64,000 nt of DNA from a virus (Duplodnaviria; Caudoviricetes). Positions 401 to 56,727 of the stretch are shown here, piece by piece (position 1 is the stretch's first letter; each line of letters begins with the position of its first letter). A program made the translations under genes and the position numbers. The stretch is taken from positions 2,896 through 66,895 of the IMG/VR virus record IMGVR_UViG_3300014204_000185. One strand, 5' to 3'. Under the pieces are notes generated by a model. That model was not told the DNA's origin. It saw nothing but the letters and a program-made list of their open reading frames with translations, and made no database searches.

Positions 401-596
401 AGAAAGGACTTCAATTAAAAATTGGGATAAATATCGTAAGGAGAAGTTAGAAAACGTTCCCGTCGAAGAACGCCTTGCCCTTATCTACGGATGGATGCGA
501 GATCCCGACAAAAACATTCCAAGAATCACGTTTAAGCAATTCAAGCACCTAACCAATTTGGCTTACGATATTACGGTAATCGGTGATGTAGAATGA
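397..596 (+). CDS. hypothetical protein, possibly frameshifted at an A5 run
   Basis: GTG at 397 overlaps upstream stop; one extra A near 417-421 would join it to the ...NWDKYRKEKLENV... frame ending ATGA at 593-596. Confidence 0.4.
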
Positions 597-1771
597 GAAA
601 ACTTGCATCAATTCAGAGAATAACGGCAATTAGACCCATCGACGGTGCGGATAAGATCGAATGCGTTTCCGTTCTTGGCTGGGAGTGCGTTGCAAGGAAG
701 GAAGAATTTCACATCGGCGATCTGGTGGTTTATATCGAAGTGGATTCAATAATGCCAGTAAGACCTGAATTTGAATTTCTACGGGAACGAAAATTCAGAG
801 TAAGAACCATCAAACTCCGCAAACAGATTTCTCAGGGGATTTGCTTCCCTTTGTCGATACTTCCTTCCGGCAAGCACAAAGAAGGCGATGATGTAACCGA
901 GATTGTTGGTGTCACTAAGTACGATCCGGAAGCCGTCAAAGAGGCATTAGAAGAGGCAAGACAAAACTCCATCAATAAAAACCGAGTTGACAAATTCCTT
1001 AAGAGATACAGGTGGTACAGGAGATATTTCACCAAGTCAGGAAAACGGGGGTGGCCGGAATTTATCAAGAAAACCGATGAGGAACGTATCCAGAATCTTC
1101 CGTGGATTTGCGATAAAGAACAAGGAACTGTCTTTACCGCAACAGAGAAATTGGACGGTCAATCGGGGACGTACGCATTGCTGAGATTACCGAAACGGTG
1201 GTGGCAGTTAAAGCACAGATACGAGTTCTTCGTTTGTAGTCGGAACGTACACCTACGGACAGAACACCCCTGCTCTTATTGGGAAATAGCAATAAAGCAC
1301 GATATCCGCAGAGTGTTGGAAAAACTGATTAGCGATCAGGAGTTTGTTGTATTTCAGGGAGAGATCATCGGGGAAGGAATCCAGGGAAACAAATATGGGA
1401 TTAAGGGGCGTGATTTTTATGCCTTTAATTTGGTTTATCCCTTTGGTAGGATGGAGCCAACCAGCGCGATGGTCGATCTATCATCTTGGGGGATCAAAAC
1501 GGTCCCCCGTCTTGAAGAATTAAAGTTACCCGGAACGGTAAAGGAATGTGTTGAAATTGGCAAGGGTAAATCAACGCTTGCAAACATACATAGGGAAGGG
1601 ATAGTGTTGAGGAATTACGAGAGGGGGCTTTCGTTCAAGATAATCAATCCGGACTTTCTTCTGAAGTACCAAGATGAAGACCAAGAATGGCAGGAAACTC
1701 ATTTCCCCCGCAACGAGAAAACCCCTTGTCGCAATTCCTCGACCATAAATACAGAAAAGGATATAGCATGA
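593..1771 (+). CDS. ATP-dependent RNA ligase, DRB0094/Rnl5-like family
   Basis: N-terminal MRKLASIQRI...GADKIE...GWECV...GDLVVYIEVDS domain; nucleotidyltransferase motifs EKLDG, FQGEIIG, FYAFN, EGIVLR, FKIIN. Confidence 0.88.
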   Translation: MRKLASIQRITAIRPIDGADKIECVSVLGWECVARKEEFHIGDLVVYIEVDSIMPVRPEFEFLRERKFRVRTIKLRKQISQGICFPLSILPSGKHKEGDDVTEIVGVTKYDPEAVKEALEEARQNSINKNRVDKFLKRYRWYRRYFTKSGKRGWPEFIKKTDEERIQNLPWICDKEQGTVFTATEKLDGQSGTYALLRLPKRWWQLKHRYEFFVCSRNVHLRTEHPCSYWEIAIKHDIRRVLEKLISDQEFVVFQGEIIGEGIQGNKYGIKGRDFYAFNLVYPFGRMEPTSAMVDLSSWGIKTVPRLEELKLPGTVKECVEIGKGKSTLANIHREGIVLRNYERGLSFKIINPDFLLKYQDEDQEWQETHFPRNEKTPCRNSSTINTEKDIA

Positions 1772-2055
1772 TTGACTGCATCTACAACGACAGGGAGAAG
1801 TGGTGTTTTAATCCGGACGTGACGAAGCCGTTGTTTCGTAAGAAGCGGTGTTGCATCTACCACGGGAAACTGTGCAAGAAGCAGGTGATGATTGAACGGC
1901 TATTTCCGTCCTCACCCCTCACAACACTTGCTGATTTATACGCAGAGATGGCGCGTGCAATCTGTGAAGCGTTCGCGGTTCCGCCGATGATGCTCAGATA
2001 TACATCAATTCTCTGGTGGTCCCCGCTGAACAATACGAAGAAGGGGTGGGGATGA
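1768..2055 (+). CDS. hypothetical Cys-rich protein
   Basis: ATGA-coupled ORF (MIDCIYNDREKWC...). Confidence 0.5.
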   Translation: MIDCIYNDREKWCFNPDVTKPLFRKKRCCIYHGKLCKKQVMIERLFPSSPLTTLADLYAEMARAICEAFAVPPMMLRYTSILWWSPLNNTKKGWG

Positions 2056-2243
2056 AAACCGGAAGCATCTATATAACCATCGAATTAGATACCATCCCAT
2101 ATCGAAAGAAGGTCTATCCGGCCCTTCGGAGTCTGATGAAATTGGCCTTGCGATGGAGGCGGTTCTTTTGCCTCGATTACTGGATGACGTGGCTTTACAC
2201 GGCAACGGTTCATATCGAAGCCCTAATAAGGCGCAAGAAATGA
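2052..2243 (+). CDS. hypothetical protein
   Basis: ATGA-coupled ORF. Confidence 0.4.
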   Translation: MKTGSIYITIELDTIPYRKKVYPALRSLMKLALRWRRFFCLDYWMTWLYTATVHIEALIRRKK

Positions 2244-2262
2244 AATCAAGAAAGGGAAAAGG

Positions 2263-2697
2263 ATGAATATCGAAGTAGGCAAGAAGGCTTTGGTCACAAC
2301 GGATAATTGGTTCTTTGCCCCGAATGGACAATCATATCGGGCCGTGTTTGGAACGGTGAAGGCAATCCATACCACGGAATCTATTTTCGGATTCACGCCG
2401 ACTGGTAAAAGCACGAATTGGTTTCTTGAAATAGGAAATATGCTCATTGCGGGATGCCAGATTCACTACGCACTGAGGACTGACGTGTGTAGTGACGCCC
2501 CCGCACCGACTTGGAGTTCCGATGCTTCTAATGGCCTCAAGGAATATAATGCACCGTGTCGGATTTACTTTGCTGACGCGGATGATATGGAGTTCATAAG
2601 CAACCGTCCCCTTCCGACCACGGAAGAATTAATTGCGAAGGGAATCATTTTGCCGCCGGTTGATTTTTCCCCCGCCAAGCCGCCGGAGGAAGAGTGA
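2263..2697 (+). CDS. hypothetical phage protein
   Basis: 144-aa ORF with GGGAAAAGGA RBS; part of co-oriented run. Confidence 0.65.
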   Translation: MNIEVGKKALVTTDNWFFAPNGQSYRAVFGTVKAIHTTESIFGFTPTGKSTNWFLEIGNMLIAGCQIHYALRTDVCSDAPAPTWSSDASNGLKEYNAPCRIYFADADDMEFISNRPLPTTEELIAKGIILPPVDFSPAKPPEEE

Positions 2698-2858
2698 TGA
2701 AAAACGTATTGATGATTTTATGGGGAGCGGCAACGTCGTCTGGATGGTGGGCTTGTGCGTGGTGGGGATTTGGTAATCCATTTATCGCCCTCGGAACGAT
2801 TGCGTCAACGCTGGGGATATTTGCCGCTATTGTTATTATTGCATTAGGGGGAGAGTAA
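2697..2858 (+). CDS. small membrane protein
   Basis: 53-aa hydrophobic ORF read by hand; stop/start overlaps at both ends. Confidence 0.4.
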   Translation: MKNVLMILWGAATSSGWWACAWWGFGNPFIALGTIASTLGIFAAIVIIALGGE

Positions 2859-3013
2859 TGACCGAAAGCGATCTTAACGATCTATTGATAGCGGCAAAAG
2901 AAGATGGTTGGTGCCAGGAATGCGGACTTGAACACATTGCTCCGATGCTGGCAAGACTATTAAAAGAATCTGGTAGAGAAATTCCCGCTTGGCTTACAAG
3001 GTGCGTAAGATGA
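2858..3013 (+). CDS. small hypothetical protein (CxxC)
   Basis: 51-aa ORF MTESDLND...WCQECG...; coupled at both ends. Confidence 0.45.
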   Translation: MTESDLNDLLIAAKEDGWCQECGLEHIAPMLARLLKESGREIPAWLTRCVR

Positions 3014-3198
3014 CCGATACCCTACTCGGTAAACCAATCATTTATACGGATGTCTTGAAAGATCCAGGTGAAATTACATTCGGGATTTATCCGGCAACTT
3101 ATAAAGCGACGAATAAAGTGACGGTGGAAGTAGTTTATGTGGAAGACGATTTTAACAATCTCATCCCCCTCTTGATTGAGGGATACAGGAGGAAATAA
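3010..3198 (+). CDS. hypothetical protein
   Basis: ATGA overlap start, TAATG overlap end. Confidence 0.5.
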   Translation: MTDTLLGKPIIYTDVLKDPGEITFGIYPATYKATNKVTVEVVYVEDDFNNLIPLLIEGYRRK

Positions 3199-3437
3199 TG
3201 ATTCTGTTGAAACGGTGTGATGGGTGTGGCGTAGAGGGAAATGAAGATGAAATCGCAACAGATTACAACGGAACGGATCGGTGTAGAAAATGTGCCATAA
3301 AACATGAACTATCATCCCTTGAGTCAGCACTTAAAGAGAAACTATATTATGTAAAAACTATCCAAGGCAAGGAAATCAGGGAAATAAGATTGAGAATTAG
3401 TGATTTAAGGAAAGAAATGGAGACGATCTTATTATGA
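3198..3437 (+). CDS. hypothetical Zn-binding/coiled-coil protein
   Basis: CDGC...CRKC motif; coupled ORF. Confidence 0.55.
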   Translation: MILLKRCDGCGVEGNEDEIATDYNGTDRCRKCAIKHELSSLESALKEKLYYVKTIQGKEIREIRLRISDLRKEMETILL

Positions 3438-3808
3438 GAGCATTCTTTATTGGCGGCAGCATGGACGGGAAGATAAGGACGTTGGATGACAGGGCAAGGT
3501 CGTTTGAACTTCCGGGACTGAGTGAATCATACTTTAACCATTACTCCATCGGATATGACTTTGACAAAACGGCAGTATTCGTTCTCGATGGATACGGAGT
3601 CCGGAGAGCACTATCCAACACGATCACCGTTACACCCCCGGCCACCCATTTCTGCAGGGACTGTAAGAATACTCCCGTACCCCTGAGTAAAAACCTATCG
3701 ATCTGCGACATGGGGGAACAGCATGATTATGTCAGGGGATTTGAACACCATTATTGCTCCAAGAAGAACCACGACGGTCTATGCAAGGACTTTGAGGCGA
3801 GGGGATGA
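3434..3808 (+). CDS. hypothetical protein
   Basis: FIGGSMDG start; C-terminal Cys cluster; coupled. Confidence 0.55.
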   Translation: MRAFFIGGSMDGKIRTLDDRARSFELPGLSESYFNHYSIGYDFDKTAVFVLDGYGVRRALSNTITVTPPATHFCRDCKNTPVPLSKNLSICDMGEQHDYVRGFEHHYCSKKNHDGLCKDFEARG

Positions 3809-4035
3809 GAAAAGGAATCGTTTATATATCGCGTGATCTATTGCTTCGTGGGTTGAAAATTCCAGACCATTGGCATGTTGAATGTATTCACATGAATGAG
3901 GGTTCCACATACGCCATAGCCATTATCAGCGGGAACGAATTTCCGGAGGTTCCCGTTGGTGAATCTCCAAAAGAATGCCGTATCAGAATAACGACCCACG
4001 AAGACACCTATGAGGTTTTGGAGGTAAGGGGATAA
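3805..4035 (+). CDS. hypothetical protein
   Basis: coupled ORF. Confidence 0.55.
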   Translation: MRKGIVYISRDLLLRGLKIPDHWHVECIHMNEGSTYAIAIISGNEFPEVPVGESPKECRIRITTHEDTYEVLEVRG

Positions 4036-4183
4036 TGCGAAAATTGCTTATTGGTTTCTTAGTGATGTTACCATGCTTTTTTATACCGACCATCTCCGGG
4101 AAATTTATAGGAGGTGATTTTTGGCCTCCGCTGTTTATGTTTTGGGGCGGGATGCTTTACGTTTGGATTACAAGGGAGGTAAA

Positions 4184-4396
4184 ATGAAACAATATGACGA
4201 GCTTATAATCAACGGCAAGCCGATCAAGCCGAACAAGTATTTCAATGGTGAATACGTTGACGCGAGGAACGCGCTGATACCGCAGGCCGAGAAGTTTGCG
4301 GACAAACACGTCCCGGTTGTAGAGACAGAGATGCAGAGAGATACCTGGAATCAGATGTTCCACGGGAAGATGGACGAACTGTCCTCTAATTTATGA
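4184..4396 (+). CDS. hypothetical protein
   Basis: GGGAGG RBS before ATG 4184. Confidence 0.55.
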   Translation: MKQYDELIINGKPIKPNKYFNGEYVDARNALIPQAEKFADKHVPVVETEMQRDTWNQMFHGKMDELSSNL

Positions 4397-4590
4397 AGCG
4401 CATTAACCAAAGCCCTATAGTCAAGTGCCTCTTCTGTGGTAACGAGATCATCGCGGAAGAAACTGAACGTAAGTGGCTATTTGACTGCGATTCATGCGGT
4501 AGTGTTTGGGAAAGCGAGGGTAAGACTATCCCGAAGATTAAGGTAATCACACGGACAGAGATCAGGGAAGAGCTGGACTTTGAGGACTAA
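4393..4590 (+). CDS. small zinc-ribbon protein
   Basis: CLFCG...CDSCG. Confidence 0.55.
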   Translation: MKRINQSPIVKCLFCGNEIIAEETERKWLFDCDSCGSVWESEGKTIPKIKVITRTEIREELDFED

Positions 4591-4591
4591 G

Positions 4592-4771
4592 ATGAAGGAA
4601 CTGCCGAATAGGCCGAAGTTGCGCGTCAAGGCCGTTGCAGAATTTTGGGATGTGAGTATATCTTGTGTGTATAACTGGATTGCAATGGGAATCGTGCCTG
4701 CCGAAAAGAAGGGCGGTTCTCTTAGGATAAAATACGAAGACGCAGAGAAGGGAAAGCCATCCATAGAATAA
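4592..4771 (+). CDS. excisionase-like helix-turn-helix DNA-binding protein
   Basis: LRVKAVAEFWDVSISCVYNWIAMG...GGSLRI pattern typical of HTH_17-like proteins. Confidence 0.75.
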   Translation: MKELPNRPKLRVKAVAEFWDVSISCVYNWIAMGIVPAEKKGGSLRIKYEDAEKGKPSIE

Positions 4772-4773
4772 AA

Positions 4774-4848
4774 TGCCGAGTAGCCAAGCGGTAAGGCGTG
4801 TGACTGTTAATCACATTATCGCTGGTTCGATTCCAGCTTCGGCAGCCA
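4774..4848 (+). tRNA. tRNA-Asn (GTT)
   Basis: acceptor TGCCGAG/TTCGGCA; D-arm GCC..GGC; anticodon arm TGTGA-CTGTTAA-TCACA; T-loop TTCGATT; encoded CCA. Confidence 0.93.
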
Positions 4849-4855
4849 AAACTAA

Positions 4856-4929
4856 TCAGGGATCATCTAATGGCAGGATGGTTGGTTTTGAGCCAACTCA
4901 TTAAGGTTCGACACCTTATCCCTGAGCCA
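4856..4929 (+). tRNA. tRNA-Gln (TTG)
   Basis: acceptor TCAGGGA/TCCCTGA; anticodon arm GTTGG-TTTTGAG-CCAAC; T-arm TAAGG-TTCGACA-CCTTA; encoded CCA. Confidence 0.9.
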
Positions 4930-4971
4930 ATCAAACAAACCATCCACCAACAAGCACTTCTTAAATAATCT

Positions 4972-5022
4972 TTCCAATCCTTCCAATCCTTGTTAGACAC
5001 CAAGCAAAATCTATGCCATTAT
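4972..5022 (+). promoter_or_regulatory. candidate late promoter with upstream tandem 9-bp repeat
   Basis: TTCCAATCC x2 (4972-4989), TAGACA (4994-4999), 17 bp, CATTAT (5017-5022), ahead of the head module. Confidence 0.4.
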
Positions 5023-5082
5023 ACCGACAAAAGAGCGCACCATCTCTTAAACTCGATCCTAAGGATTCGGTAAATGCGGTAG

Positions 5083-5316
5083 ATGGGACTCAACACGGTA
5101 ATTACCAGAATGGCTCAAAAGGTAGGCGTATATGCTGATACGCTGAAGTCCGCATTTTTGCGGGTTTCGAGTTCTATTGATTCTAAGCCGCTGTTTTTCA
5201 TGGGCGGTTTTCTTTTATTTGGGTGGGGGCTCTACGATTTCCTTCCGTGGCTGTCAAAAGTAATCTGCGGGTTCATCCTCATGGCTATCGGTTATTTGAT
5301 GGGGTCTAAACGATGA
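5083..5316 (+). CDS. small membrane protein preceding portal
   Basis: two hydrophobic segments; ATGA overlap with portal. Confidence 0.6.
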   Translation: MGLNTVITRMAQKVGVYADTLKSAFLRVSSSIDSKPLFFMGGFLLFGWGLYDFLPWLSKVICGFILMAIGYLMGSKR

Positions 5317-7570: not shown

Positions 7571-7589
7571 GATTCAAGGAGGAACGAAA

Positions 7590-40542: not shown

Positions 40543-41879
40543 TATTTTGCCTCTCCGTTCTCGACCACAAACACCCCGACTTCCGGCGGTGCCGTCGCTG
40601 GCCGCTCACCAACAATGGTTGCCAAAATCGTCTTGTCTTCCCGTTTCGCCTTTTCAACAAATTCAAGGATGTTCTTTCCGATAGCAAAACCGAGACTTTC
40701 AGCGCGGTCGATCAAGTCAAGTCCGAATCCGGCGGGATACAGGGCCGATAGCTCCTGAGACAATGACATGAGTTGTGAGGTTGACAGCATTGCGGCAGTG
40801 GTTCCATCATAAGTGAACGATCCGTCTTCGTTAAAGACCAGCCCCTTGATTCCACTTTTCTGACTTGTTTCTGCCAACAAGGAAACCTTTTTCTTTTTCA
40901 GGTCGCGTTGGGTAGCTTCGTTGGCCGTCAATTTTTCCTCTTTGAGCCTCTTTTCCAATGCCCGCTTCACGTTCTTTTCGTATTGTTCAACCCGCACTGC
41001 AACGGCGGCAGCTTCGGAAATTTGAGCATCGAGCACGGAGACATCCGGAGGGGATGGTCTGGATGCAATAGTCGCGGCGGGATTGTCATTAAGCCACTGA
41101 TTGATGTTGATTTTATCCAGAGAAAGCTCGTTCTTCTTGTCGTTCAGCCGTTTTGTTACTTCGGCAAGTTCGTCCTCGATTTGCCGGATTTCTTGTGTGA
41201 TTGTGTCCCTACGTTCTGTTTTTCTTTCTCGTAAATCATTCAGAGAGCGCAACGATTCGCTCCGCTTGTCAACTTCACTGACGGCGACGGTGTGTTCATC
41301 CAGGATACGCTCACGCTCCTTTTTCAGTTCCGTGACATCAACGGGATTTACCGGCGTAGTGTCAATCTCTCCGTAGGACTTAATCTCGATACGCAGCGTC
41401 TTTGCTTCTTCAGCCGACGCATTGATTTCTTTGTCGATTGCCGACGTATCGACTCCGAACAGTCCGACAAAATACGCCTTCCGTTCCGTTTCGCCCATCT
41501 TCTTTAGGAAGTCTGAGTCGAGAAGATAGGGATTGAGAAACTTCTTGATTTCGTTGTCGGGCTTCGATACTGGCTTTCCCGAACGAATAAAAGATACCGG
41601 GCGAACGGTAGTCACGCCCTCCCTGTTGATGTACCATGACCGGAAAATTGATCCGGGTCCGGATTCTTCCTGAAACTCGAATAGGACGGATGCCTCCGTC
41701 TCGCCATGCCTGATAATATCTGCCGGATAAGTTCCACCGAGACACCACTTGAAGGCGTTCAAAATGGTCGTCTTCCCCTGCATCAAATCCCCATAGAACA
41801 GGACCAGTGGCTTATCCAGATCAATCGCCATGTTTCCGATGATACCAATGTTGTTAATCGTCAACCGTATAGCTTTCAT
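40542..41879 (-). CDS. SMC/SbcC-like P-loop ATPase with coiled coil
   Basis: Walker A GDLMQGKTT; central coiled coil; LSTSQ signature-like; LIDRAESL Walker B. Confidence 0.8.
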   Translation of the reverse strand: MKAIRLTINNIGIIGNMAIDLDKPLVLFYGDLMQGKTTILNAFKWCLGGTYPADIIRHGETEASVLFEFQEESGPGSIFRSWYINREGVTTVRPVSFIRSGKPVSKPDNEIKKFLNPYLLDSDFLKKMGETERKAYFVGLFGVDTSAIDKEINASAEEAKTLRIEIKSYGEIDTTPVNPVDVTELKKERERILDEHTVAVSEVDKRSESLRSLNDLRERKTERRDTITQEIRQIEDELAEVTKRLNDKKNELSLDKININQWLNDNPAATIASRPSPPDVSVLDAQISEAAAVAVRVEQYEKNVKRALEKRLKEEKLTANEATQRDLKKKKVSLLAETSQKSGIKGLVFNEDGSFTYDGTTAAMLSTSQLMSLSQELSALYPAGFGLDLIDRAESLGFAIGKNILEFVEKAKREDKTILATIVGERPATAPPEVGVFVVENGEAK

Positions 41880-45661: not shown

Positions 45662-45755
45662 CGGTGCTGGTGCCGGGATTCGATACCCGGACGGCCGCCA
45701 GAGTCTGAATCACAAGCGCGGCCCCTCTGCGTCTTTACTCTTCCGCCACACCAGC
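45662..45755 (-). ncRNA. tRNA-like element with non-canonical anticodon region
   Basis: acceptor GCTGGTG/CACCAGC+A; D-arm GCG..CGC; T-arm CCGGG-TATCGAAT-CCCGG; no 7-nt anticodon loop; ends ACCG. Confidence 0.65.
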
Positions 45756-46079: not shown

Positions 46080-46108
46080 TTGACTTTTTTTCTCACTTGT
46101 GAAATACT
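46080..46108 (+). promoter_or_regulatory. candidate rightward promoter
   Basis: TTGACT-17 bp-AATACT. Confidence 0.4.
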
Positions 46109-46116
46109 CCGCAACC

Positions 46117-46314
46117 ATGAAGATAAACATAACGACCCTTGAAAATGACAGAGTGCGTAGGGGAATGAGCAGGGAGGACTATTCAAGAATGATGGGGCTC
46201 CACTTTACTGCCTACGGTAAGATGCTTAAATCGCAATCTACCACAATGAAAAGGATTGGTGCAATGGCGACCATACTCAGAATTAAGGAGAAGAGATTGG
46301 TGGTGTTTGAATGA
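46117..46314 (+). CDS. Cro/XRE-like HTH protein
   Basis: R.RRGMSREDYSRMMGL.FTAY.KM...TTMKRI..MA..L; first gene of divergent operon. Confidence 0.65.
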   Translation: MKINITTLENDRVRRGMSREDYSRMMGLHFTAYGKMLKSQSTTMKRIGAMATILRIKEKRLVVFE

Positions 46315-46760
46315 AGATACCGGATACATTCGCCGATGACGCAAGGGTAATGAGCATCCAACCCCTTGCCCAAAAGTACGACATTGGCTGTATGATGGCG
46401 GGAAGGTGGAGAAAGTCTTTGGGTATAAAACCGCCTGCCATTAATGCCATAAACTACATGCAACTGGACTCGCTGATACGTGACAAGAGGTCAACCCGCG
46501 ACATCATGAAGATCATGGGATGTTCACGATCCCCCATTAACGACCGGAAACGCGCACGGGGTCTGGCCCGGAAGTATAACAAGAAGTCGGACGAAGATGC
46601 CCATGTCGAGAAGCGGGAATGCATGGTAGATCCGAAAGACCGCCTTGAGCAATACATTGAGAAGCGGATGCGGCAGTTCCATATGACGCGGAAAGCGGTG
46701 AACAATTGGTTCAACACGCCAACCGGCCAGAACATACTGAGGGAGTACCCGATACGATGA
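46311..46760 (+). CDS. HTH-containing hypothetical protein
   Basis: STRDIMKIMGCSRSPI. Confidence 0.55.
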   Translation: MKIPDTFADDARVMSIQPLAQKYDIGCMMAGRWRKSLGIKPPAINAINYMQLDSLIRDKRSTRDIMKIMGCSRSPINDRKRARGLARKYNKKSDEDAHVEKRECMVDPKDRLEQYIEKRMRQFHMTRKAVNNWFNTPTGQNILREYPIR

Positions 46761-47218
46761 ATAAACGTGGATATTTTGGCGTAGGCATTTATCACGCCAA
46801 AACAGAGGCGAACATCGGGACGCTGTGGCGTTCTGCTCACAATTTCGGGGCGGCATTTATTTTTACCATCGGGAAACGATACAAAAAACAATCTTCCGAC
46901 ACCACGAAGGCATGGAAGACCGTTCCTCTATTCCACTACGCAACCTTCGGTGAGTTCTATGAAAACATTCCACACGATTGCCGCCTCATTGCGATTGAAC
47001 AAAGCGAGTCCTCTAAAAGCATTTCCTCTTTTCTGCATCCTGAACGGGCGATTTATTTACTTGGAGCCGAAGACCATGGCCTGCCAGGATCAATCCAAGA
47101 CGATTGTCACGCTATTATTCATATCGACACTCCGATGTGCCTAAATGTGGCAACGGCTGGATCAATTATTATGTACGACAGATCAATTAAACGCGGAAGG
47201 GAGTATCCAATACGATGA
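46757..47218 (+). CDS. SpoU/TrmH-family (SPOUT) RNA methyltransferase
   Basis: ANIGTLWRSA, LLGAEDHGL, CLNVATAGSIIMYDR. Confidence 0.88.
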   Translation: MNKRGYFGVGIYHAKTEANIGTLWRSAHNFGAAFIFTIGKRYKKQSSDTTKAWKTVPLFHYATFGEFYENIPHDCRLIAIEQSESSKSISSFLHPERAIYLLGAEDHGLPGSIQDDCHAIIHIDTPMCLNVATAGSIIMYDRSIKRGREYPIR

Positions 47219-47967
47219 CCATCCGATTATTTAATGGGGATTGCATGGAAGCGATGAAGGTCATGCCCGACAAGGCTTACGATCTGGCGATTGTCGATGT
47301 TCCTTATCAGATTGGGGCCGACAAAATAGGTCATAAGAAATTTGGCCTTGGTCGCGGAGCCCGACAGAAAAACGGCAGTATGATCTTTGTGGCAACAGTA
47401 AATTACCCGCCGAAAAAATGGGATGTCCGTCCCCCGAAAGAATATTTCGATCAACTGTTTCGTATCTCGAAAAATCAAATAATTTGGGGAGGAAACCATC
47501 TTGCGGATTTGATCTGCAGGCCGTCACCTTGTTGGGTTGTTTGGGATAAATGCAACGAGGGAACAGATCAAAGTGACGCAGAGTTGGCGTGGACCAGCTT
47601 TAAAACGGCAACCCGGATATTTCGTTTCATGTGGTCCGGGATGATGCAGGGATCGCTGCGGTGCGGATCAAGAGCCAATGGGAACAAGCGCCTAAATGAA
47701 AAGCGTATTCATCCCACCCAAAAGCCCGTCGCCCTCTATAAGTGGCTCCTGAAGAACTACGCCAAGCCGGGGGACAAGATACTGGACACCCACGGCGGGT
47801 CGGGCAGCATCCTGATTGCCTGCCACGACCTCGGATTCTCAATCGACTGGTACGAAATCGACACAGAGTATTTCAACGCGGCAAAGGAACGCCTTGAACG
47901 GCATCAACGGCAGGCGGTTATGACGTTTGACGCTCCGATATTACCAACACAGGAGGCGTTGCTATGA
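47215..47967 (+). CDS. DNA N4-cytosine/N6-adenine methyltransferase (beta class)
   Basis: AIVDVPY; HPTQKPVALY; ILDTHGGSGS. Confidence 0.88.
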   Translation: MTIRLFNGDCMEAMKVMPDKAYDLAIVDVPYQIGADKIGHKKFGLGRGARQKNGSMIFVATVNYPPKKWDVRPPKEYFDQLFRISKNQIIWGGNHLADLICRPSPCWVVWDKCNEGTDQSDAELAWTSFKTATRIFRFMWSGMMQGSLRCGSRANGNKRLNEKRIHPTQKPVALYKWLLKNYAKPGDKILDTHGGSGSILIACHDLGFSIDWYEIDTEYFNAAKERLERHQRQAVMTFDAPILPTQEALL

Positions 47968-48006
47968 CCCGCCTACTCGAATCCCTGATCGTTAAGGAGG
48001 TTTTAC

Positions 48007-48693
48007 ATGCCACTTAAGAAATCGGTTGGAAATATGTATCCGTTGGTTTCTCATACGCATTCGCATTTAGGCGGCGCGTGTCCCCATCAGTGCGTCTATT
48101 GCTACGTCAAAAGTTTTCCCTTCCGGCTGGAAAAATATCAAGGACCGTTGCGCCTGATTGAGAAAGAGTTATTTGTCAACTACGGATCTGGAAAAACCAT
48201 CTTTATTGAGAACTGCAACGACATGATGGCGAAGGACGTTCCTCAATCTTTCATAAATCAGATCATCGTCCACTGCTTGAAATTCCCCGGAAACACCTAC
48301 GTCTTCCAGACCAAGAACCCGGAAAGGTATCTGGCTATGGATTCTCTTTTCCCGGAAGGGTCTATACTTGGGACCACTATTGAATCAAACAGATGGTTCA
48401 CCGTGATGGGCAATGCTCCATCACCCATTGACCGAATGTTGGCCATGGAAAGACTTCCGGGGCGGAAATTCATTACCATCGAGCCGGTCATGGACTTCGA
48501 TGTTGATTGTCTCGCCTCATGGATCGACCGGATACGACCGGAATTTCTCAATTTGGGCGCGGACAGTAAAGGTCATAATCTTCCGGAGCCGAGTATTGAA
48601 AAGATCGTGGCCCTTACGGAAAAACTGAGGGAGTACGGGATTGAATTACGGGAGAAGCATAACCTTGCGAGATTGAAGCCATGCGATACCTAA
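48007..48693 (+). CDS. radical SAM protein (SPL/DUF5131-like)
   Basis: CPHQCVYC CxxxCxxC; FQTKNP, LGTTIE, ITIEP. Confidence 0.82.
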   Translation: MPLKKSVGNMYPLVSHTHSHLGGACPHQCVYCYVKSFPFRLEKYQGPLRLIEKELFVNYGSGKTIFIENCNDMMAKDVPQSFINQIIVHCLKFPGNTYVFQTKNPERYLAMDSLFPEGSILGTTIESNRWFTVMGNAPSPIDRMLAMERLPGRKFITIEPVMDFDVDCLASWIDRIRPEFLNLGADSKGHNLPEPSIEKIVALTEKLREYGIELREKHNLARLKPCDT

Positions 48694-48768
48694 TCGAAGC
48701 CCTGATCGTGATTATCGGATGGGCGATAGCAATCGCGCTGATCCGGTGGGATGGGTGGTGGATGTGAA

Positions 48769-49533
48769 ATGAGCTTAATTGAAAACGGCATATTCGGAAC
48801 GATTGACAAGGTGGCTGAAGCGATTCAGCGGATTAAGGATTTTGAACCGCCGGAAGGGTATTACGTTGCCTTTTCAGGCGGTAAGGATTCGGTTGTCATC
48901 CTCGATCTTGTTAAGCGTTCCAGGGTGAAGTTTGACGCTCATTACAATCTTACAACGGTTGATCCTCCCGAAGTTGTTTGGTTCATTCGGACATTCCCGG
49001 AAGTCCAGATTCATCATCCAGAAAAAACCATGTGGCAGCTTATCGTTGAAAACGGGATGCCACCGCTAAGACAAAGCCGATATTGTTGCCGAATCCTGAA
49101 AGAACAAGGCGGAAGAGATCGTCGCGTTTTAACGGGAATCCGTTGGGCGGAAAGCAATCGGCGTAAAAAAAGGGAACCCGAAGAGGATTGTTTTAAGGGG
49201 AAAGAGCATAAAACATACATACACCCTATTATTGGTTGGTCTAATGGCGAAGTATGGCAATATATACGAGAATACAAACTTTCTTATTGTTCACTTTATA
49301 ACGAAGGATGGAAGCGGCTTGGCTGTGTGTGCTGTCCAAATGCAGACCAAAAAAGACAGGCTAAACGGTGGCCGAAGATTGCGGACGCTTACCGCCGTGC
49401 CTGTATTCGAGCTTTCGATAAGGCAAAAAATGACGGTAAGCACAGAACATGGAAAAATGGCGATGAAATGTTTGAGTGGTGGATTTCGGGGCAAGGAAAT
49501 GGCGATCCCGACCAGACTATAATGTTTGAATAG
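48769..49533 (+). CDS. PAPS-reductase-family protein
   Basis: VAFSGGKDS, TTVDPPE, RYCC, TGIRWAES, HPIIGW, RLGCVCCP. Confidence 0.88.
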   Translation: MSLIENGIFGTIDKVAEAIQRIKDFEPPEGYYVAFSGGKDSVVILDLVKRSRVKFDAHYNLTTVDPPEVVWFIRTFPEVQIHHPEKTMWQLIVENGMPPLRQSRYCCRILKEQGGRDRRVLTGIRWAESNRRKKREPEEDCFKGKEHKTYIHPIIGWSNGEVWQYIREYKLSYCSLYNEGWKRLGCVCCPNADQKRQAKRWPKIADAYRRACIRAFDKAKNDGKHRTWKNGDEMFEWWISGQGNGDPDQTIMFE

Positions 49534-50470: not shown

Positions 50471-50512
50471 ATGGACACGCCTGGGCTATGAAATTTTATG
50501 GGAGCGGAGGGG

Positions 50513-51667
50513 ATGAAGATAATAAACGAGGGCGTGTTGGTTATAAAAAGTTGGTGCGAGAATCCCGAAGATGGGGCGGTTGAACAGGCAAAGAATCTCT
50601 CCCGGCTACCGTTCGCGTTCAGGCAGATTTGTCTTATGCCGGATACACATCAAGGATACGGAATGCCGATAGGTGGTGTTCTGGCGACGGACGGGGTTGT
50701 CGTTCCGAACGCGGTTGGGGTTGATATTGGGTGTGGAATGTGTGCCGTCAAAACATCGTTGACAGAAATATCCCTCGAAACTCTAAAGCGGATCATTGGA
50801 ACGATAAGAGTTGATGTTCCCGTTGGATTCAATAAACACGATAAGCCACAAGACGATGACCTAATGCCGAAGTCCCCGATGGGCGTAATCGCCAACAGGG
50901 AATACGAGAACGCCCGTAAATCGCTTGGAACTCTTGGCGGCGGGAATCACTTCATTGAGATCCAACGCGGGGATGACGGCCATATCTGGATCATGCTCCA
51001 CTCTGGAAGTCGCAATCTCGGTAAGCAAGTTGCTGATTACTACAACATGATCGCCATATCCTTAAACGAACAATACCTCAGTCGTGTTCCGAAAGAATGG
51101 GAGCTTGCGTTTCTTCCCATTTATGGCGAAGACGGTGAAGAATATTTAACGGAAATGCAATACTGTGTTGACTTTGCGTTCGTGAACAGACGCGCTATGA
51201 TAGACAAGATTCAGGCGGCTTTTATTGAGCACGTCGATCACGTCTCGTTTGAACCCATGATTAATATCGCCCATAACTACGCCAGAATAGAGCACCATTT
51301 TGGCAAGAACGTCATGATTCACAGGAAGGGGGCCACCTCGGCGCGTGACGGAGAGATTGGAATAATCCCCGGATCACAAGGAACGTCAAGCTATATCGTG
51401 CGCGGAAAGGGGAATCCGGAAAGTTTCATGTCGTGTTCTCACGGGGCGGGCAGGAAAATGGGGAGAAAACAGGCCGAAAGGACGCTTGATCTTGCCACGG
51501 AACAAAAACGACTTAATGATCGCGGCATCCTTCATTCCGTTCGAGGGATTCACGATCTTGACGAAGCATCTGGAGCATATAAAGACATTGGTGTGGTTAT
51601 GAAAGAACAGGAAGACCTTGTTGAAATCGTAACCAGACTTGAACCATTGGCGGTGATAAAGGGGTGA
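50513..51667 (+). CDS. rtcB: RtcB-family RNA ligase
   Basis: MPDTHQGYGMPIG, GVDIGCG, GTLGGGNHFIE, HSGSR, HNYA, HRKGAT, IPGSQG, SHGAGR, DEASGAYK. Confidence 0.95.
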   Translation: MKIINEGVLVIKSWCENPEDGAVEQAKNLSRLPFAFRQICLMPDTHQGYGMPIGGVLATDGVVVPNAVGVDIGCGMCAVKTSLTEISLETLKRIIGTIRVDVPVGFNKHDKPQDDDLMPKSPMGVIANREYENARKSLGTLGGGNHFIEIQRGDDGHIWIMLHSGSRNLGKQVADYYNMIAISLNEQYLSRVPKEWELAFLPIYGEDGEEYLTEMQYCVDFAFVNRRAMIDKIQAAFIEHVDHVSFEPMINIAHNYARIEHHFGKNVMIHRKGATSARDGEIGIIPGSQGTSSYIVRGKGNPESFMSCSHGAGRKMGRKQAERTLDLATEQKRLNDRGILHSVRGIHDLDEASGAYKDIGVVMKEQEDLVEIVTRLEPLAVIKG

Positions 51668-52648: not shown

Positions 52649-52848
52649 TGTTGACCGTCTATATCAAGAACGTGAAGACAATTAAGGACATCGCTGACTA
52701 CGAATACATCGTGATGGTCAATGCTGAGAAAATAGCTGAAGGGAAAATCGAGAAGCACGAACGGTCGGATGGATGGGCGCGACTTGTGAAGCGGATAGCG
52801 GAAAAATACATAGATTGTTCAATTTCAACAAACGCTGAAAAGGACTGA
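52648..52848 (+). CDS. hypothetical protein
   Basis: coupled ORF. Confidence 0.55.
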   Translation: MLTVYIKNVKTIKDIADYEYIVMVNAEKIAEGKIEKHERSDGWARLVKRIAEKYIDCSISTNAEKD

Positions 52849-52852
52849 TTGA

Positions 52853-53098
52853 ATGAAAGAAACCTTCAACGCCTTAGCGACCGAACTTTGTAGGAGGGTT
52901 GGCGCTCCATATCCGTCACCGAAGCCGATAAATCCGACCGACTACACATGGACTCAGTCCGAAGAAGACGACTACCGGGAATGGGCGATTAATCTCTTGC
53001 GATCAAAGGGGCCGTTGCGACGGATGGGGAAGAAATACGTCAGCGCGGTTATGGACACATTTTTAGCTAATTACGGGTGGATGGTGGAGGGGAAATGA
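52853..53098 (+). CDS. hypothetical protein
   Basis: coupled ORF. Confidence 0.55.
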   Translation: MKETFNALATELCRRVGAPYPSPKPINPTDYTWTQSEEDDYREWAINLLRSKGPLRRMGKKYVSAVMDTFLANYGWMVEGK

Positions 53099-53724
53099 TG
53101 GAAAATATGGTTGAGTTTGTTGGATTTCCGAAGATTGTAAGACTGTCCAGCGAGGTGATCGTTACGGAAAAAATCGACGGGACGAATGCACAGATTTACA
53201 TTCCCGGCCCGGAAGATATTTTCCCGCCATACGGTTTAACTCTCGATAAAACGACACACGGAATGTCCCTGCTTGTGGGTAGCAGAACCAGGTGGATAAC
53301 ACCCGAATGCGACAATCACGGATTCGCACGGTGGGCTTATGACCACGCCGAAGAATTGGTTACTTGCCTCGGTCCGGGTCGCCACTTTGGGGAGTGGTGG
53401 GGATCGGGGATTCAACGGGGTTACGGACTACCGAAAGGAGAGAAAAGATTCAGCCTGTTCAATACGCTACGGTGGGGAAGTGACCGAGATATGGAGAAAT
53501 ATCCGAATGATAAGCCGGATTGTTGCCATGTGGTTCCGGTTCTTTGGCGGGGTGTTTTTGACACCCAACAAATCGAAATGGAATTAGCTACATTGAAAAA
53601 TTGCGGAAGTGTCGCGGCTCCCGTCTTTATGAAACCGGAAGGGATTGTCGTCTATCACATCGCCGGAAACATAGCGTTTAAGAAAACAATCGGTGATGAC
53701 GGAAATAAGGGGGACAACCGATGA
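53095..53724 (+). CDS. compact Rnl2-like RNA ligase (adenylyltransferase domain)
   Basis: TEKIDGTNA, SRTRWI, FGEWWG.GIQ, FSLFN, VPVLWRG, EGIVV, FKK. Confidence 0.82.
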   Translation: MMENMVEFVGFPKIVRLSSEVIVTEKIDGTNAQIYIPGPEDIFPPYGLTLDKTTHGMSLLVGSRTRWITPECDNHGFARWAYDHAEELVTCLGPGRHFGEWWGSGIQRGYGLPKGEKRFSLFNTLRWGSDRDMEKYPNDKPDCCHVVPVLWRGVFDTQQIEMELATLKNCGSVAAPVFMKPEGIVVYHIAGNIAFKKTIGDDGNKGDNR

Positions 53725-53909
53725 CCACTTCCACCACACCGAGACTAATTTGCCCTGTTTGTAGTGGAAGCCATCTCGACTACCGACAGCCTGACGGCCT
53801 CTGTAAGTGCTTCACAAACATGAAGAAGATGAAGGCGGGGGATGATTGTGAAGTGGTTAATGACCTTATGGCGATGTTCGGGATGGGGAAGAAGGGTAAG
53901 GATGAATGA
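53721..53909 (+). CDS. small Cys-rich protein
   Basis: CPVC; stop overlaps both methyltransferase starts. Confidence 0.5.
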   Translation: MTTSTTPRLICPVCSGSHLDYRQPDGLCKCFTNMKKMKAGDDCEVVNDLMAMFGMGKKGKDE

Positions 53910-54666: not shown

Positions 54667-54989
54667 TGAAAAGTGACCAAATGGGTAGCTCCACTACCCA
54701 CCCGGTATCGAAACGTCAGCAAATGGCGCAATCTGCCGACGAATTTGTACCAATGTGTCGATGTTTGCTCAATTTATGGACACGTTCACCAGACGTGTAC
54801 ACGGCGCGGACATGAACACCGGCAGATGTGAATAAGTGAATGTATTTCTATCCAATTATCGGCAAAATTATAGTTTATGTGCCGATTATATGCGGTTAAG
54901 CCTATCTTGGGCGGGTGCATTGTATTGTTGGCATAATGGCTTGGTGGGGGATTTGGGGGAAATAGTGTGCAATAAAAGGGGAGGGATTA

Positions 54990-55439
54990 ATGAGGGAAAT
55001 TGAGTTTCGAGCTTGGGATAAGGTGAAACAGGAATGGGCTTTTGGTTATCCTGGTTGTGGAGGATTCCATCTTTTCGGAGAGCTACACTTGCTTGGCTAT
55101 CTACAAATAGAAAAATTAAATGATTATGTAGCGATGCAGTTCACCGGCCTGCGTGACAAGAACGGCGTCAAGATATTCGAGGGGGATATTGTTGAGTGTA
55201 CGCATTGGTTTTTTGATGGGAGTGAGATCGAGGAACATTTCCGCGCCCATGTTGGATTCCGCGATGGCTCATCCACGCTTGAGGGGATTAAAAGCAAATA
55301 TTACTCGGATTACACCGGAGAAAGTAATGGAGAGGGCATTTGCTGGATTGGTTCTATAAATTACAACGAAGAAGATTATGAAGTCACCAGCAACATCTAC
55401 AAGAATAATCTTGGTTTGACCGTTAACCCTAAAGTTTGA
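54990..55439 (+). CDS. YopX-family protein
   Basis: MREIEFRAWDK, MQFTGLRDKNGVKIFEGDIV, YEV..NIY. Confidence 0.88.
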   Translation: MREIEFRAWDKVKQEWAFGYPGCGGFHLFGELHLLGYLQIEKLNDYVAMQFTGLRDKNGVKIFEGDIVECTHWFFDGSEIEEHFRAHVGFRDGSSTLEGIKSKYYSDYTGESNGEGICWIGSINYNEEDYEVTSNIYKNNLGLTVNPKV

Positions 55440-55573
55440 AAATGTATCAGAAAGAGTAGTGGTGCTACCAATGTACAGACAAAGATAAACTTGGATTTGT
55501 CAGGAATGTTGGTGTGTTTTTCATCGGAGGAATATGCAGAAAAGAACCGCCCACCCCATACAAATGGCCTAAT

Positions 55574-55855
55574 ATGGGTAATGCAAAATACGAGAAGTGG
55601 CATAAGGAAGCGGGGCTTTGTGTGAAATGTCCTGAACCGGCTACGCATGGCGTTAGTTGTAGAAAACATTGGCTCGCCAAGAAGGTCCGAGATCGGAGGT
55701 CGCGGGAGAAAATGAGGGTTATTTTAATCGCACAAGGTTTGTGTGGACAATGCCGCGCACCTCTTGAACCAGAGGTCGATGAAGATACTAAGTGTTGCCA
55801 AAACTGCCGTGAACACGTGGGTCGCGTAAATGAAAGGAGAGGAAATTACAAATGA
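55574..55855 (+). CDS. Cys-rich Zn-finger protein
   Basis: GLCVKC, GLCGQC, CQNC. Confidence 0.55.
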   Translation: MGNAKYEKWHKEAGLCVKCPEPATHGVSCRKHWLAKKVRDRRSREKMRVILIAQGLCGQCRAPLEPEVDEDTKCCQNCREHVGRVNERRGNYK

Positions 55856-56727
55856 AACTATCAACAATATTGAACATGCCGAATGAGTTTGAATTAGTGC
55901 TATTTGGGGACAACCAAGAAGGTAACTGTGCCTCGGCTTCCGATAAATATCGGGAGTGTATTGATTATATCTGTTCAAAGCCGAATAGATATGGGGTTCA
56001 CATGGGAGACGCTTGCGACGCTTTTTGGTGTGACGACATTAAGCGATACGACCCCATGACGACAAAGATCACTCCAGCAGAGCAAAAGAAGCGATTTGTG
56101 AAAGACACTGCGCCATTAGCAAAGACAGGAAGACTACTCACCATCCTAAAGGGAAACCACGAAAAGGCTATTGAGAGAAAGTACGGTGACTTCGCGGCTG
56201 AGATTTGCGAAAATCTCCAAGAGTTCGGAAAAGGTGTCTTCCCTATCACTGGAACGTACACCAATAAGTTGGAATTTCGTGACAAGAAAAACTCATTAAT
56301 GTTCAAGGGATACTTCACACATGGACGAAAGTCTCTTTCATCTGTATCACCAGACCCGCACCGCCGGAAGGCTTATTTACAATTTAGATTAAAGCGCCTC
56401 CTTGAAAACATGGCCGGAGACTGCATTCTTATGGCGAGAGGCCATAGCCACATTGTTTTAGTCACACAACCCATTCCTACTGTCTATCTGACCTCTGAAA
56501 AAGGGAAGCTGAAACAGAATTACACGCAGGCTGGAAGTGGCAAGTCCGGATCATACATCCCCCCTGACCATAGATGGTACGGATGCACCGGATCTTTCTT
56601 GAAGTCTCAGGAGTTGGATGTTGAAACATACTCTGAACTTGCAGAATACGAACCGACGGAACTTGGTTATCTAATAGCGGTAATTAAAGATAGGACCGTT
56701 GTGGATCTGAAAGAAGTGAAAATTTAG
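55852..56727 (+). CDS. calcineurin-like metallophosphoesterase
   Basis: LFGDNQ, HMGD, KGNHE, FTHG, RGHSH. Confidence 0.82.
   Translation: MKLSTILNMPNEFELVLFGDNQEGNCASASDKYRECIDYICSKPNRYGVHMGDACDAFWCDDIKRYDPMTTKITPAEQKKRFVKDTAPLAKTGRLLTILKGNHEKAIERKYGDFAAEICENLQEFGKGVFPITGTYTNKLEFRDKKNSLMFKGYFTHGRKSLSSVSPDPHRRKAYLQFRLKRLLENMAGDCILMARGHSHIVLVTQPIPTVYLTSEKGKLKQNYTQAGSGKSGSYIPPDHRWYGCTGSFLKSQELDVETYSELAEYEPTELGYLIAVIKDRTVVDLKEVKI

Follow-up and report, generated by a model that had tools for sequence, protein, structure and literature searches.

The window analysed here, a stretch of 64,000 nucleotides, is best explained as the larger part of an uncultured siphovirus genome, which gained several stand-alone nucleic-acid enzymes at separate places. 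The whole record of this tailed phage, originally called a small phage, has 66,895 nt (~67 kb) and is estimated by CheckV to be 76% complete. The first genes of the contig encode an HNH protein, the small terminase and the large terminase. Three RNA-joining enzymes (an Rnl5-type ligase, RtcB and a small ligase) are encoded together with two tRNA genes, and a SPOUT methyltransferase and a phosphoesterase are also present (Table 1). All of these protein genes appear catalytically intact, judging from their sequences.

Table 1. Positions in the window of the genes discussed in the text.
Feature	Position	Strand	Evidence
Rnl5-family (NgrRnl/DraRnl-type) ATP-dependent nick-sealing RNA ligase, 392 aa	593..1771	+	PF21189, PF09414, phrog_968, 5cot
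tRNA-Asn (anticodon GUU), CCA encoded	4774..4848	+	ARAGORN; Rfam RF00005 65.9 bits
tRNA-Gln (anticodon UUG), CCA encoded	4856..4929	+	ARAGORN; Rfam 47.1 bits
Minimal SPOUT/SpoU-type 2'-O-ribose RNA methyltransferase, 153 aa	46757..47218	+	PF00588 6.4e-20
RtcB 3'-phosphate/5'-hydroxyl RNA ligase	50513..51667	+	PF01139, phrog_1075, P. horikoshii RtcB alignment
Nucleotidyltransferase-only ATP-dependent ligase, Rnl2/Rnl5 type, 209 aa	53095..53724	+	PF09414, phrog_548, motifs, fold
Small ORF, 113 aa, recurrent upstream partner of phosphoesterase	55514..55855	+	Neighbourhood
Divergent calcineurin-like metallophosphoesterase, 291 aa	55852..56727	+	phrog_7339, motifs, AF2 fold

Family matches and motifs bore out the claim that three RNA ligases, all different, reside in this phage. 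RtcB is the tRNA-splicing ligase of archaea and animals, and joins 2',3'-cyclic-phosphate or 3'-phosphate ends to 5'-OH ends. The phage protein matches PF01139 (2.4e-110) and phrog_1075 (4.4e-115) and aligns with P. horikoshii RtcB (2e-49), including the Asp/Cys/His metal ligands and the HGAGR histidine; all residues that bind metal or GMP in the P. horikoshii enzyme are aligned. Its likely start is the ATG at 50513, with GGAGG ahead, in an ORF that is open from 50498. The Rnl5-type ligase consists of an N-terminal OB module (PF21189, 2.7e-32) and a nucleotidyltransferase domain (PF09414, 5e-16), and matches phrog_968 (4.9e-65). It has this layout in common with NgrRnl from Naegleria gruberi and DraRnl from Deinococcus radiodurans, and its motif I Lys, motif III/IV Glu and motif V Lys align with those of NgrRnl (PDB 5COT; E 1.3e-46). 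Unlike in these enzymes, ~40 additional residues separate its two domains, and the C-terminus is extended by a tail of 30 residues. Its match to TIGR02306 (1e-40) scores 139.7 bits, under the 151-bit NCBIfam equivalog cut-off. The small ligase (PF09414, 6.7e-15; phrog_548, 1.3e-26) starts at an ATG preceded by GGAGG, and an OB domain and a C-terminal nucleic-acid-binding domain are absent from its 209 residues. Motifs I, Ia, III, IV and V (KxDG, SR, FGEW, EG and FKK) are invariant in 50 homologues. Its predicted fold (AF2, pLDDT 90) is closer to RNA than to DNA ligases, the best matches being NgrRnl (Z 11.3), T4 Rnl2 (Z 11.2) and REL1 (Z 10.5), with DNA ligases at Z≤9.3.

The other two enzymes were also as originally assigned. 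The SPOUT protein, recovered by its Pfam family, gave weak RlmB and TrmL matches in NCBIfam and resembles the TARBP1 methyltransferase domain (6e-5) and TrmL (2e-3) in the PDB; it has more than 3,300 homologues of ~150 aa. Its gene is set within a DNA-modification cluster, where its start overlaps the stop of the preceding ORF and a DNA N6/N4 methyltransferase gene comes next. The phosphoesterase has no Pfam match, yet its residues D20, D53, N102-H103, H157 and H198-x-H200 are invariant in 41 homologues, motif I being GDxQ and not GDxH, and it matches phrog_7339 ("DNA repair exonuclease", 2.8e-6). The AF2 model (pLDDT 92.8) has a calcineurin-like fold and is nearest to nuclease-type members, 3'-5' DNA exonucleases (PolD DP1 and Mre11/SbcD), with Z 19.4 over 228 residues for PolD DP1 and about 15 for Mre11 and LpxH. 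In 11 of 68 loci, the gene immediately preceding the phosphoesterase homologue is a homologue of the 113-aa ORF, for which no family match was found. Both tRNA genes were found by ARAGORN as well as by Rfam, and are continuous and well-scoring. A further tRNA-like element (45662-45755, minus strand) did not hold up: it was missed by default ARAGORN, emerged only at the 80% score threshold, had no Rfam match at E≤10 and gave a fold z-score of -1.2.

The five enzyme genes are spread over three places. Rnl5 occupies an accessory island in the late region, between the large terminase and portal genes, together with tRNA-Asn and tRNA-Gln. RtcB lies 45 kb from these tRNAs and has no tRNA adjacent. 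As previously noted, no polynucleotide kinase is visible in the 66,895-nt, 76%-complete record, which likewise holds no PNK3P (Pnk-type HAD phosphatase), 2H esterase, Archease, RlaP or PrfH. Since the record is incomplete, its missing part may hold a kinase or other partners.

Comparison with related loci supports a putative tRNA-linked role for RtcB and, less strongly, Rnl5, and for these two only. Of 67 loci of RtcB relatives, 31 have tRNA genes at most 10 kb away, versus 13 of 80 small-ligase loci (Fisher p 1e-4). In seven independent lineages, where about 0.3 would be expected, tRNA-Pro(UGG) lies ≤130 nt from RtcB, and the RtcB proteins of these lineages are only 52-75% identical. tRNA-Gln(UUG) occurs in 15 RtcB loci, and the tRNA-Gln of this phage resembles, by alignment, the one accompanying RtcB in two related phage contigs (L128 and L132). 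An otherwise unrelated contig (G055) has only RtcB (67%) and Rnl5 (61%) in common with the phage; there they are 3.3 kb apart, with tRNA-Pro, tRNA-Leu and tRNA-Gln nearby. RtcB and Rnl5 are within 10 kb of each other in four further loci. In a structural relative (G051), tRNA-Pro, tRNA-Gln and RtcB are inserted between the terminase genes, which parallels the terminase-portal island described above. Weighing against such a role are the 45 kb between RtcB and the tRNAs in this phage and, starting from Rnl5, the presence of RtcB in only 2 of 36 records, both >200 kb. The RNA-repair set originally proposed stands in part: RtcB and Rnl5 are linked to tRNA genes by comparison, but a single set made up of all five genes is not supported, as they occupy three places and each family mostly occurs without the others.

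We therefore lean, with some reserve, toward a reading in which scattered, separately acquired genes of kinds known in phages do not make up one coordinated pathway, and RtcB, Rnl5 and the two tRNAs serve as a loose kit that counters tRNA- or rRNA-cutting nucleases of the host. RtcB would join the ends left by metal-independent ribotoxins, and Rnl5 would seal 3'-OH/5'-phosphate nicks in base-paired RNA, ends that metal-dependent nucleases could make and for which no kinase would be needed. The two end chemistries predicted for this phage are indeed both represented, by RtcB (3'-phosphate or 2',3'-cyclic phosphate plus 5'-OH) and by the ATP-dependent ligases (3'-OH plus 5'-phosphate). The tRNA-Asn(GUU) and tRNA-Gln(UUG) may stand in for depleted host tRNAs. 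The small ligase, the SPOUT methyltransferase and the phosphoesterase, probably exonuclease-like (3'-5'), would remain outside the kit. We infer these substrates and the counter-defence role from the observed family membership, intact active sites, neighbourhoods and co-occurrence counts.

It is also conceivable, although rather unlikely, that the ATP-dependent ligases (the small one especially) and the phosphoesterase serve DNA, by sealing ribonucleotide nicks or processing ends in replication or RecET recombination, and that only RtcB and the tRNAs deal with RNA damage. By sequence, the small ligase is a member of a large phage family usual in replication/recombination modules: across 80 loci its kin typically lie among genes for DNA polymerase, helicases, RecA, ERF, YqaJ, endonuclease VII and dGTP diphosphohydrolase. 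RtcB is present in 0 of 50 records of these relatives. Some link to the kit does exist, in that the small ligase directly follows RtcB in loci L148 and L160. The phage itself encodes RecE, RecT and an SbcC-like ATPase, its phosphoesterase gene adjoins a replication-initiator gene, and no ATP- or NAD-dependent DNA ligase was found in the 76%-complete record. DNA ligases of family PF01068 were found in 2 of 50 records with the small ligase versus 12 of 50 with RtcB (p 0.008), but this contrast is gone in records ≥90% complete (2/26 versus 2/13, p 0.59). DraRnl and NgrRnl seal duplex nicks having an RNA 3'-OH strand (PMC5397189, PMC4408790), characterised Rnl5 enzymes favour such nicks over anticodon-loop breaks (PMC4408790), and loss of DraRnl leads to radiation sensitivity and not to a tRNA phenotype (PMC5397189). 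Against a function in DNA metabolism, the modelled small ligase is nearer to RNA ligases, and Rnl5 sits beside tRNA genes, outside the replication module. In addition, domain-deleted T4 Rnl2 is poor at sealing a 5'-phosphate nick. The same applies to domain-deleted DraRnl (PMC1807946).

A single integrated RNA-repair pathway, in which the phosphoesterase heals 2',3'-cyclic or 3'-phosphate ends for sealing by the ATP-dependent ligases, RtcB joins ends directly and a protective, Hen1-like 2'-O-methyl comes from the SPOUT enzyme, seems improbable. In its favour, each of the five enzyme types is present and looks active; SPOUT, RtcB, small ligase and phosphoesterase are co-oriented within one 10-kb stretch (46.7-56.7 kb); and 11 of 50 records bearing this phosphoesterase family also have PF09414 ligases. 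Moreover, in Microbacterium phage Caron (OQ190481.1, 47.7 kb) a metallophosphoesterase gene lies directly upstream of RtcB, in a genome with a small ligase and tRNA-Asn. However, the record holds no kinase to supply 5'-phosphate, relatives of the phosphoesterase accompany RtcB in 1 of 50 records and only 3 of their 68 loci place them ≤10 kb from RtcB or the small ligase, and the Caron enzyme belongs to a different, shorter subfamily, to which BLAST finds no similarity; the closest folds of the phage enzyme are those of DNA exonucleases. None of 8 loci and none of 5 records of SPOUT relatives contained a ligase, and those loci had no standard tRNA, so that the protective Hen1-like role once suggested for this enzyme is pure conjecture. 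Hen1 is a Rossmann-fold enzyme working on a broken 3' end, whereas the SPOUT enzymes known so far modify set sites in RNA that is intact and folded. The likeness to bacterial Pnkp-Hen1 is purely conceptual, in that one genome encodes a phosphoesterase, a ligase and a 2'-O-methyltransferase: the record has no kinase and no Hen1-type methyltransferase, its ligase is not Rnl4, and its genes neither form an operon nor co-occur. Very improbable, finally, is that the ligases act on RNAs of the phage itself instead of repairing damage caused by the host, for instance to join tRNAs that are split or contain introns, or to circularise transcripts. RtcB does splice tRNA in other organisms, and tRNA genes abut it in many relatives, but both phage tRNA genes are continuous with CCA encoded, the ARAGORN intron option returned no intron-bearing tRNA in the region tested, and no splicing endonuclease was seen.

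Sets of genes for RNA repair and tRNA provisioning that resemble the proposed kit are known from large phages (Iyer et al., 2021; PMC7824862). RtcB, Rnl1 and Rnl2 are carried by Burkholderia phages BcepSaruman and BcepSauron, and Xanthomonas phage XacN1 has three Rnl2 paralogues (PMC7824862). As here, several non-redundant RtcB and ATP-dependent RNA ligases accompany phage tRNAs, a combination read as a counter to host tRNA-cutting nucleases (PMC7824862). Those genomes exceed 200 kb, however, and usually also encode polynucleotide kinase, phosphatases, RlaP or Ro, which this 67-kb record with its scattered genes lacks. T4 offers a similar idea, with Pnkp-Rnl1 (and Rnl2) restoring PrrC-cut tRNA-Lys, but it requires end-healing by Pnkp; no kinase/phosphatase homologue or Rnl1 is present in this record, and RtcB would make end-healing needless.

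Three ligases are rare at this genome size, since two PF09414 ligases occur in 1 of 50 RtcB-bearing phage records, that of a 268-kb jumbo phage. The original impression of something unusual holds for a genome this small, but phages with several ligases have been described (PMC7824862), and the cultured Caron, at 47.7 kb, has a similar set. The 28 kb of Caron examined yielded no Rnl5-type ligase; in common with this phage, Caron encodes tRNA-Asn(GUU) and a protein homologous to the small ligase (47% identity), and has a terminal HNH gene. In Microbacterium phage Cece (OP068343.1, 186 kb), RtcB and an Rnl5-type ligase are embedded in a tRNA island. The hosts of both phages are Actinobacteria.

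Every gene that the original prediction had joined into one RNA-repair set, i.e., three unrelated ligases, their partner enzymes and the tRNAs, is real according to family searches, motifs, and folds (coordinates in the table below). The Rnl5 ligase has an N-terminal PHA02142-type OB module (PF21189, residues 4-87, 2.7e-32) followed downstream by an RNA_ligase nucleotidyltransferase domain (PF09414, residues 181-350), and both domains align to Naegleria NgrRnl (5cot; E 1e-46). In this alignment EKLDG, QGEIIGE, REGIV, and SFK correspond to NgrRnl K170, E227, E312, and K326, which are the lysine nucleophile and positions of motifs III, IV, and V. From its OB plus nucleotidyltransferase architecture and catalytic motifs, the protein is predicted to belong to the Rnl5 (DraRnl/NgrRnl) nick-sealing RNA ligases. 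NgrRnl and DraRnl seal 3'-OH/5'-PO4 nicks in duplexes with RNA as the 3'-OH strand (PMC4408790, PMC1807946).

Features of the window phage and of related loci (window positions unless a locus is named)
Feature	Position	Strand	Remark
HNH endonuclease, small terminase, large terminase	2.9 kb ahead of the window		
Island of small ORFs (5 kb)	1-5316		after the large terminase, before the portal; holds the Rnl5 ligase, tRNA-Asn, and tRNA-Gln
Rnl5 ligase	593-1771		
ORF with GxxxxGKST-like motif	2263-2697		near Rnl5
tRNA-Asn(GUU), tRNA-Gln(UUG)	4774-4929		
Portal-to-tail genes	up to about 32.5 kb		
Block with RecE, RecT, SbcC-like ATPase	between tail genes and about 45 kb	minus	
Recombination module	38885-41879	minus	
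Long block of small early-type genes	from about 45 kb	plus	
tRNA-like element	45662-45755	minus	
Modification-type cluster	46099-49533		
SPOUT methyltransferase	46757-47218		
RtcB	50513-51667		
Small one-domain ligase	53095-53724		
113-aa ORF and phosphoesterase	55514-56727		
Calcineurin-like phosphoesterase	55852-56727		
tRNA-Pro(UGG)-RtcB lineages (IMG/VR loci)	L128:2457-3794; L143; L153/L179; L160; L172; L176; L193		
tRNA-like call at a locus of a SPOUT relative	L277:1633-1713		

RtcB is full-length (PF01139, 2.4e-110), and GGAGG precedes its start, which is the better one and the one originally chosen. Its MPDTHQGYG, DIGCG, GNHF, HSGSR, AHN, and SHGAGR motifs align with P. horikoshii RtcB at residues that we take to be the metal-binding Asp, Cys, and His and the GMP-accepting histidine. 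Members of this family join 3'-phosphate or 2',3'-cyclic-phosphate ends directly to 5'-OH ends, with no end-healing. Archease and RF-1/PrfH, partner genes of RtcB in cellular systems, had no match in the record; cellular partner genes (RtcA, Archease, PrfH) are no requirement for RtcB membership.

The small ligase carries nucleotidyltransferase motifs I, Ia, III, IIIa, IV, and V, all invariant in 50 homologues. Sequence searches of the PDB returned no match for it or for the phosphoesterase, and therefore fold searches of structural models were used for both. Its model (pLDDT 90) is closest to NgrRnl, T4 Rnl2, and REL1 (Z 10.5-11.3), the first two being tied, NgrRnl at Z 11.3 and T4 Rnl2 at Z 11.2 (156 residues aligned at 25% identity). 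An ATP-dependent DNA ligase was considered and rejected: DNA ligases score about 2 Z units below the RNA ligases (Z ≤ 9.3), the protein has no OB domain, and PF01068 is absent from the whole record. Its earlier description as Rnl2-like holds, within a limit set by its architecture. The 209-aa chain stops about 15 residues past motif V, and the model contains the nucleotidyltransferase fold only, with no C-terminal domain. In Rnl2, that domain serves nick recognition and adenylate transfer. The small ligase is Rnl2/Rnl5-like and, lacking the Rnl2 architecture, lies outside the Rnl2 family proper.

What such a short enzyme could do is suggested by deletion work on its larger relatives. The catalytic domain of T4 Rnl2 is by itself weak on a 5'-phosphate nick, and that of DraRnl alone likewise seals it poorly (PMC1807946). 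By analogy, the one-domain ligase is therefore likely to require a partner or an unusual substrate. Neighbor clustering and Pfam tallies around the small ligase and RtcB yielded heterogeneous neighbors only and no conserved protein partner for either. The family is represented at no fewer than 242 viral loci, of which 80 (L007-L086) were kept for counting, and most members are 170-215 aa long. Immediate neighbors at these 80 loci are DNA polymerase A, helicases, DnaB, RecA, ERF, YqaJ, endonuclease VII, RNase T-type exonucleases, and dGTP diphosphohydrolase, a context that favors replication or recombination rather than RNA repair. A role as substitute for a DNA ligase was also rejected. ATP-dependent DNA ligases are rarer in small-ligase records (2/50) than in RtcB records (12/50), but the contrast is not significant among near-complete records. 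The record of the window phage itself gave no match to an ATP- or NAD-dependent DNA ligase.

The phosphoesterase was missed by the Pfam model. Family members are about 290 aa long, with invariant metal-binding motifs II-V (GD, GNH, H, and GHxH) and a motif I of the form GDxQ, in which Gln replaces the usual His of D-x-H. The best match of its model (pLDDT 92.8) is the PolD DP1 proofreading exonuclease (Z 19.4), followed by polymerase delta B subunits, LpxH, and Mre11/SbcD (Z about 15). These motifs and the modeled alpha/beta sandwich identify it as a predicted calcineurin-like metallophosphoesterase. Its recurrent partner is a small upstream ORF (113 aa), found at 11 of 68 related loci. This ORF carries a faint rubredoxin-like Cys motif.

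The SPOUT gene has a clear SpoU_methylase domain (PF00588, 6.4e-20, residues 28-157 of the long ORF). Its subfamily scores, 4e-7 for RlmB and 5e-5 for TrmL, are both far under the cut-offs; in the PDB it matches TARBP1 (6e-5) and TrmL (2e-3), and the source names of its homologues vary between TrmL and TrmH. The gene lies in a tight modification-type cluster without a ligase. Its start overlaps the stop of the preceding ORF, and downstream follow an N6/N4 DNA methyltransferase (4-nt overlap), a DUF5131/radical-SAM-like gene, and a PAPS-reductase-like gene. Both tRNA-Asn(GUU) and tRNA-Gln(UUG) are sound. The tRNA-like element is not supported, with no Rfam match and an ARAGORN call at relaxed threshold only.

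As originally noted, no polynucleotide kinase is visible: AAA_33 had no match in this roughly 76% complete record, and a hidden one was revealed neither by a six-frame P-loop scan nor by Pfam searches of ten unknown ORFs with a cut-off of E ≤ 1. The scan found Walker-A-like motifs only in the SbcC-like ATPase and in the ORF next to Rnl5. The latter was rejected as a kinase, having no kinase-family match and Atlas look-alikes that are small beta-barrel proteins. RlaP, 2H phosphoesterase, and PNK3P phosphatase had no match in the record either. Judged by sequence, both the kinase and a dedicated HAD- or 2H-type 3'-phosphatase or 2',3'-cyclic phosphodiesterase, as used in Pnkp/Hen1- or T4 Pnkp-type end-healing, appear to be missing from the record.

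Whether the genes form one set was addressed by counting co-occurrence in IMG/VR loci fetched around relatives of each protein, from which the contexts of phosphoesterase homologues were also taken. RtcB-bearing records contain one PF09414 ligase in 14 of 50 cases and two only in a 268-kb record, and RtcB occurs in 2 of 36 Rnl5-bearing records, both larger than 200 kb. Neither RtcB nor Rnl5 lies within 10 kb of a small-ligase relative at any of the 80 loci, and RtcB is absent from all 50 whole small-ligase records, 26 of them at least 90% complete. For the phosphoesterase family, 1 of 50 records contains RtcB and 11 contain a PF09414 ligase, with RtcB or the small ligase within 10 kb at only 3 of 68 loci. 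The eight viral loci of SPOUT relatives contain no ligase and no standard tRNA, and their records neither RtcB nor PF09414 (0/5), which speaks against the ligase-linked, Hen1-like role suggested for this enzyme. The sole ARAGORN call at these eight loci, in L277, is an odd tRNA-like gene whose "anticodon" has 2 nt; it precedes the SPOUT gene by 30 nt.

Such low co-occurrence across loci and records means that the five genes are independently mobile and that the full combination is rare. Of the repair interpretation first proposed, the two end chemistries and a tRNA link of RtcB find support, but the single set does not. Partial combinations do recur. One IMG/VR contig, G055, shares with the window phage only RtcB (67%) and Rnl5 (61%), separated by 3.3 kb, with tRNA-Pro, Leu, and Gln about 9 kb away; RtcB is paired with Rnl5 at four further loci, and the small ligase directly follows RtcB at two RtcB loci. 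Among cultured Microbacterium phages, Cece carries an Rnl5-type ligase and RtcB within a large tRNA island, and Caron (47.7 kb) combines the small ligase with tRNA-Asn(GUU), a terminal HNH gene, and a metallophosphoesterase next to RtcB. In ordinary-sized Microbacterium phages, Jacobs-Sera et al. (PMC7302621) report RtcB as well as an RNA ligase with a kinase, and Iyer et al. (PMC7824862) list jumbo phages that carry three ligases and mention divergent ligases in actinophages. The particular trait of the window phage is that about 67 kb encode three types of ligase but no healing enzymes, a compact kinase-free case for studying possible ligase redundancy.

RtcB does show a link to tRNA genes. 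A tRNA lies within 10 kb at 31 of 67 loci of RtcB relatives (52-72% identity) compared to 13 of 80 small-ligase loci (p 1e-4), the commonest being tRNA-Gln(UUG) and tRNA-Pro(UGG) (15 loci each). tRNA-Pro(UGG) is found no more than 130 nt from RtcB in seven independent lineages, where about 0.3 would be expected. The gap is 4-31 nt in six of them and 127 nt in the remaining one (L128), and the tRNA is upstream of RtcB in some and downstream in others. Between these lineages RtcB identity is 52-75%, and the tRNA sequences differ widely. No mention of this linkage was found in the literature examined. The contig G051 (L198/L199), a structural relative of the window phage (large terminase 54%, portal 39%), has tRNA-Pro, tRNA-Gln, and RtcB (71%) between the small and large terminase genes. 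It thus mirrors the window-phage island, with a ligase and tRNAs amid packaging genes, at another junction and with another ligase. The relatedness of the tRNA-Gln genes is visible in an alignment.

How phages reverse or circumvent host attack on tRNAs through genes of their own is under active study in phage-bacterium conflict, and the repeated, tight attachment of RtcB to tRNA-Pro(UGG) across divergent phages is a hint at tRNAs cut by host nucleases. It has also been proposed that phage tRNAs are nuclease-resistant replacements (PMC10264068). The ATP-dependent ligases would act on breaks that are already 3'-OH and 5'-phosphate, such as those from metal-dependent nucleases, which would be the easiest explanation for the missing kinase. 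A broader scheme, which we regard as improbable, would be kinase-free RNA repair split by end chemistry, with RtcB taking 2',3'-cyclic-phosphate/5'-OH ends, the two ATP-dependent nick-sealing ligases taking 3'-OH/5'-phosphate ends from metal-dependent defense nucleases, and the one-domain family constituting a new minimal nick-sealing class, perhaps acting with a partner or on RNA-DNA junctions. Two leads stand out as most useful, more so than the phage itself: the linkage of RtcB to tRNA-Pro(UGG) and the one-domain ligases, a very common family present in hundreds of phages and never characterized. Bench work is required before either lead alters present understanding.

The IMG/VR record, of which the window covers bases 2896-66895, is 66,895 nt long, is classed as linear, has no terminal repeats between contig ends, and is 76% complete according to CheckV; roughly a quarter of the genome may lie outside it. 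When the 50-57 kb segment was compared by megablast with 50,697 phage records, no near-identical relative emerged, and in the portal relatives L002-L006 Rnl5 is absent from the sequence covered around the portal gene. GC content is 48.6%, with no compositional anomaly in any gene of interest. The recombination module consists of a RecT-like annealing protein, a RecE/exonuclease VIII-like nuclease, and the SbcC-like ATPase, a protein of 445 aa with an N-terminal Walker A motif.
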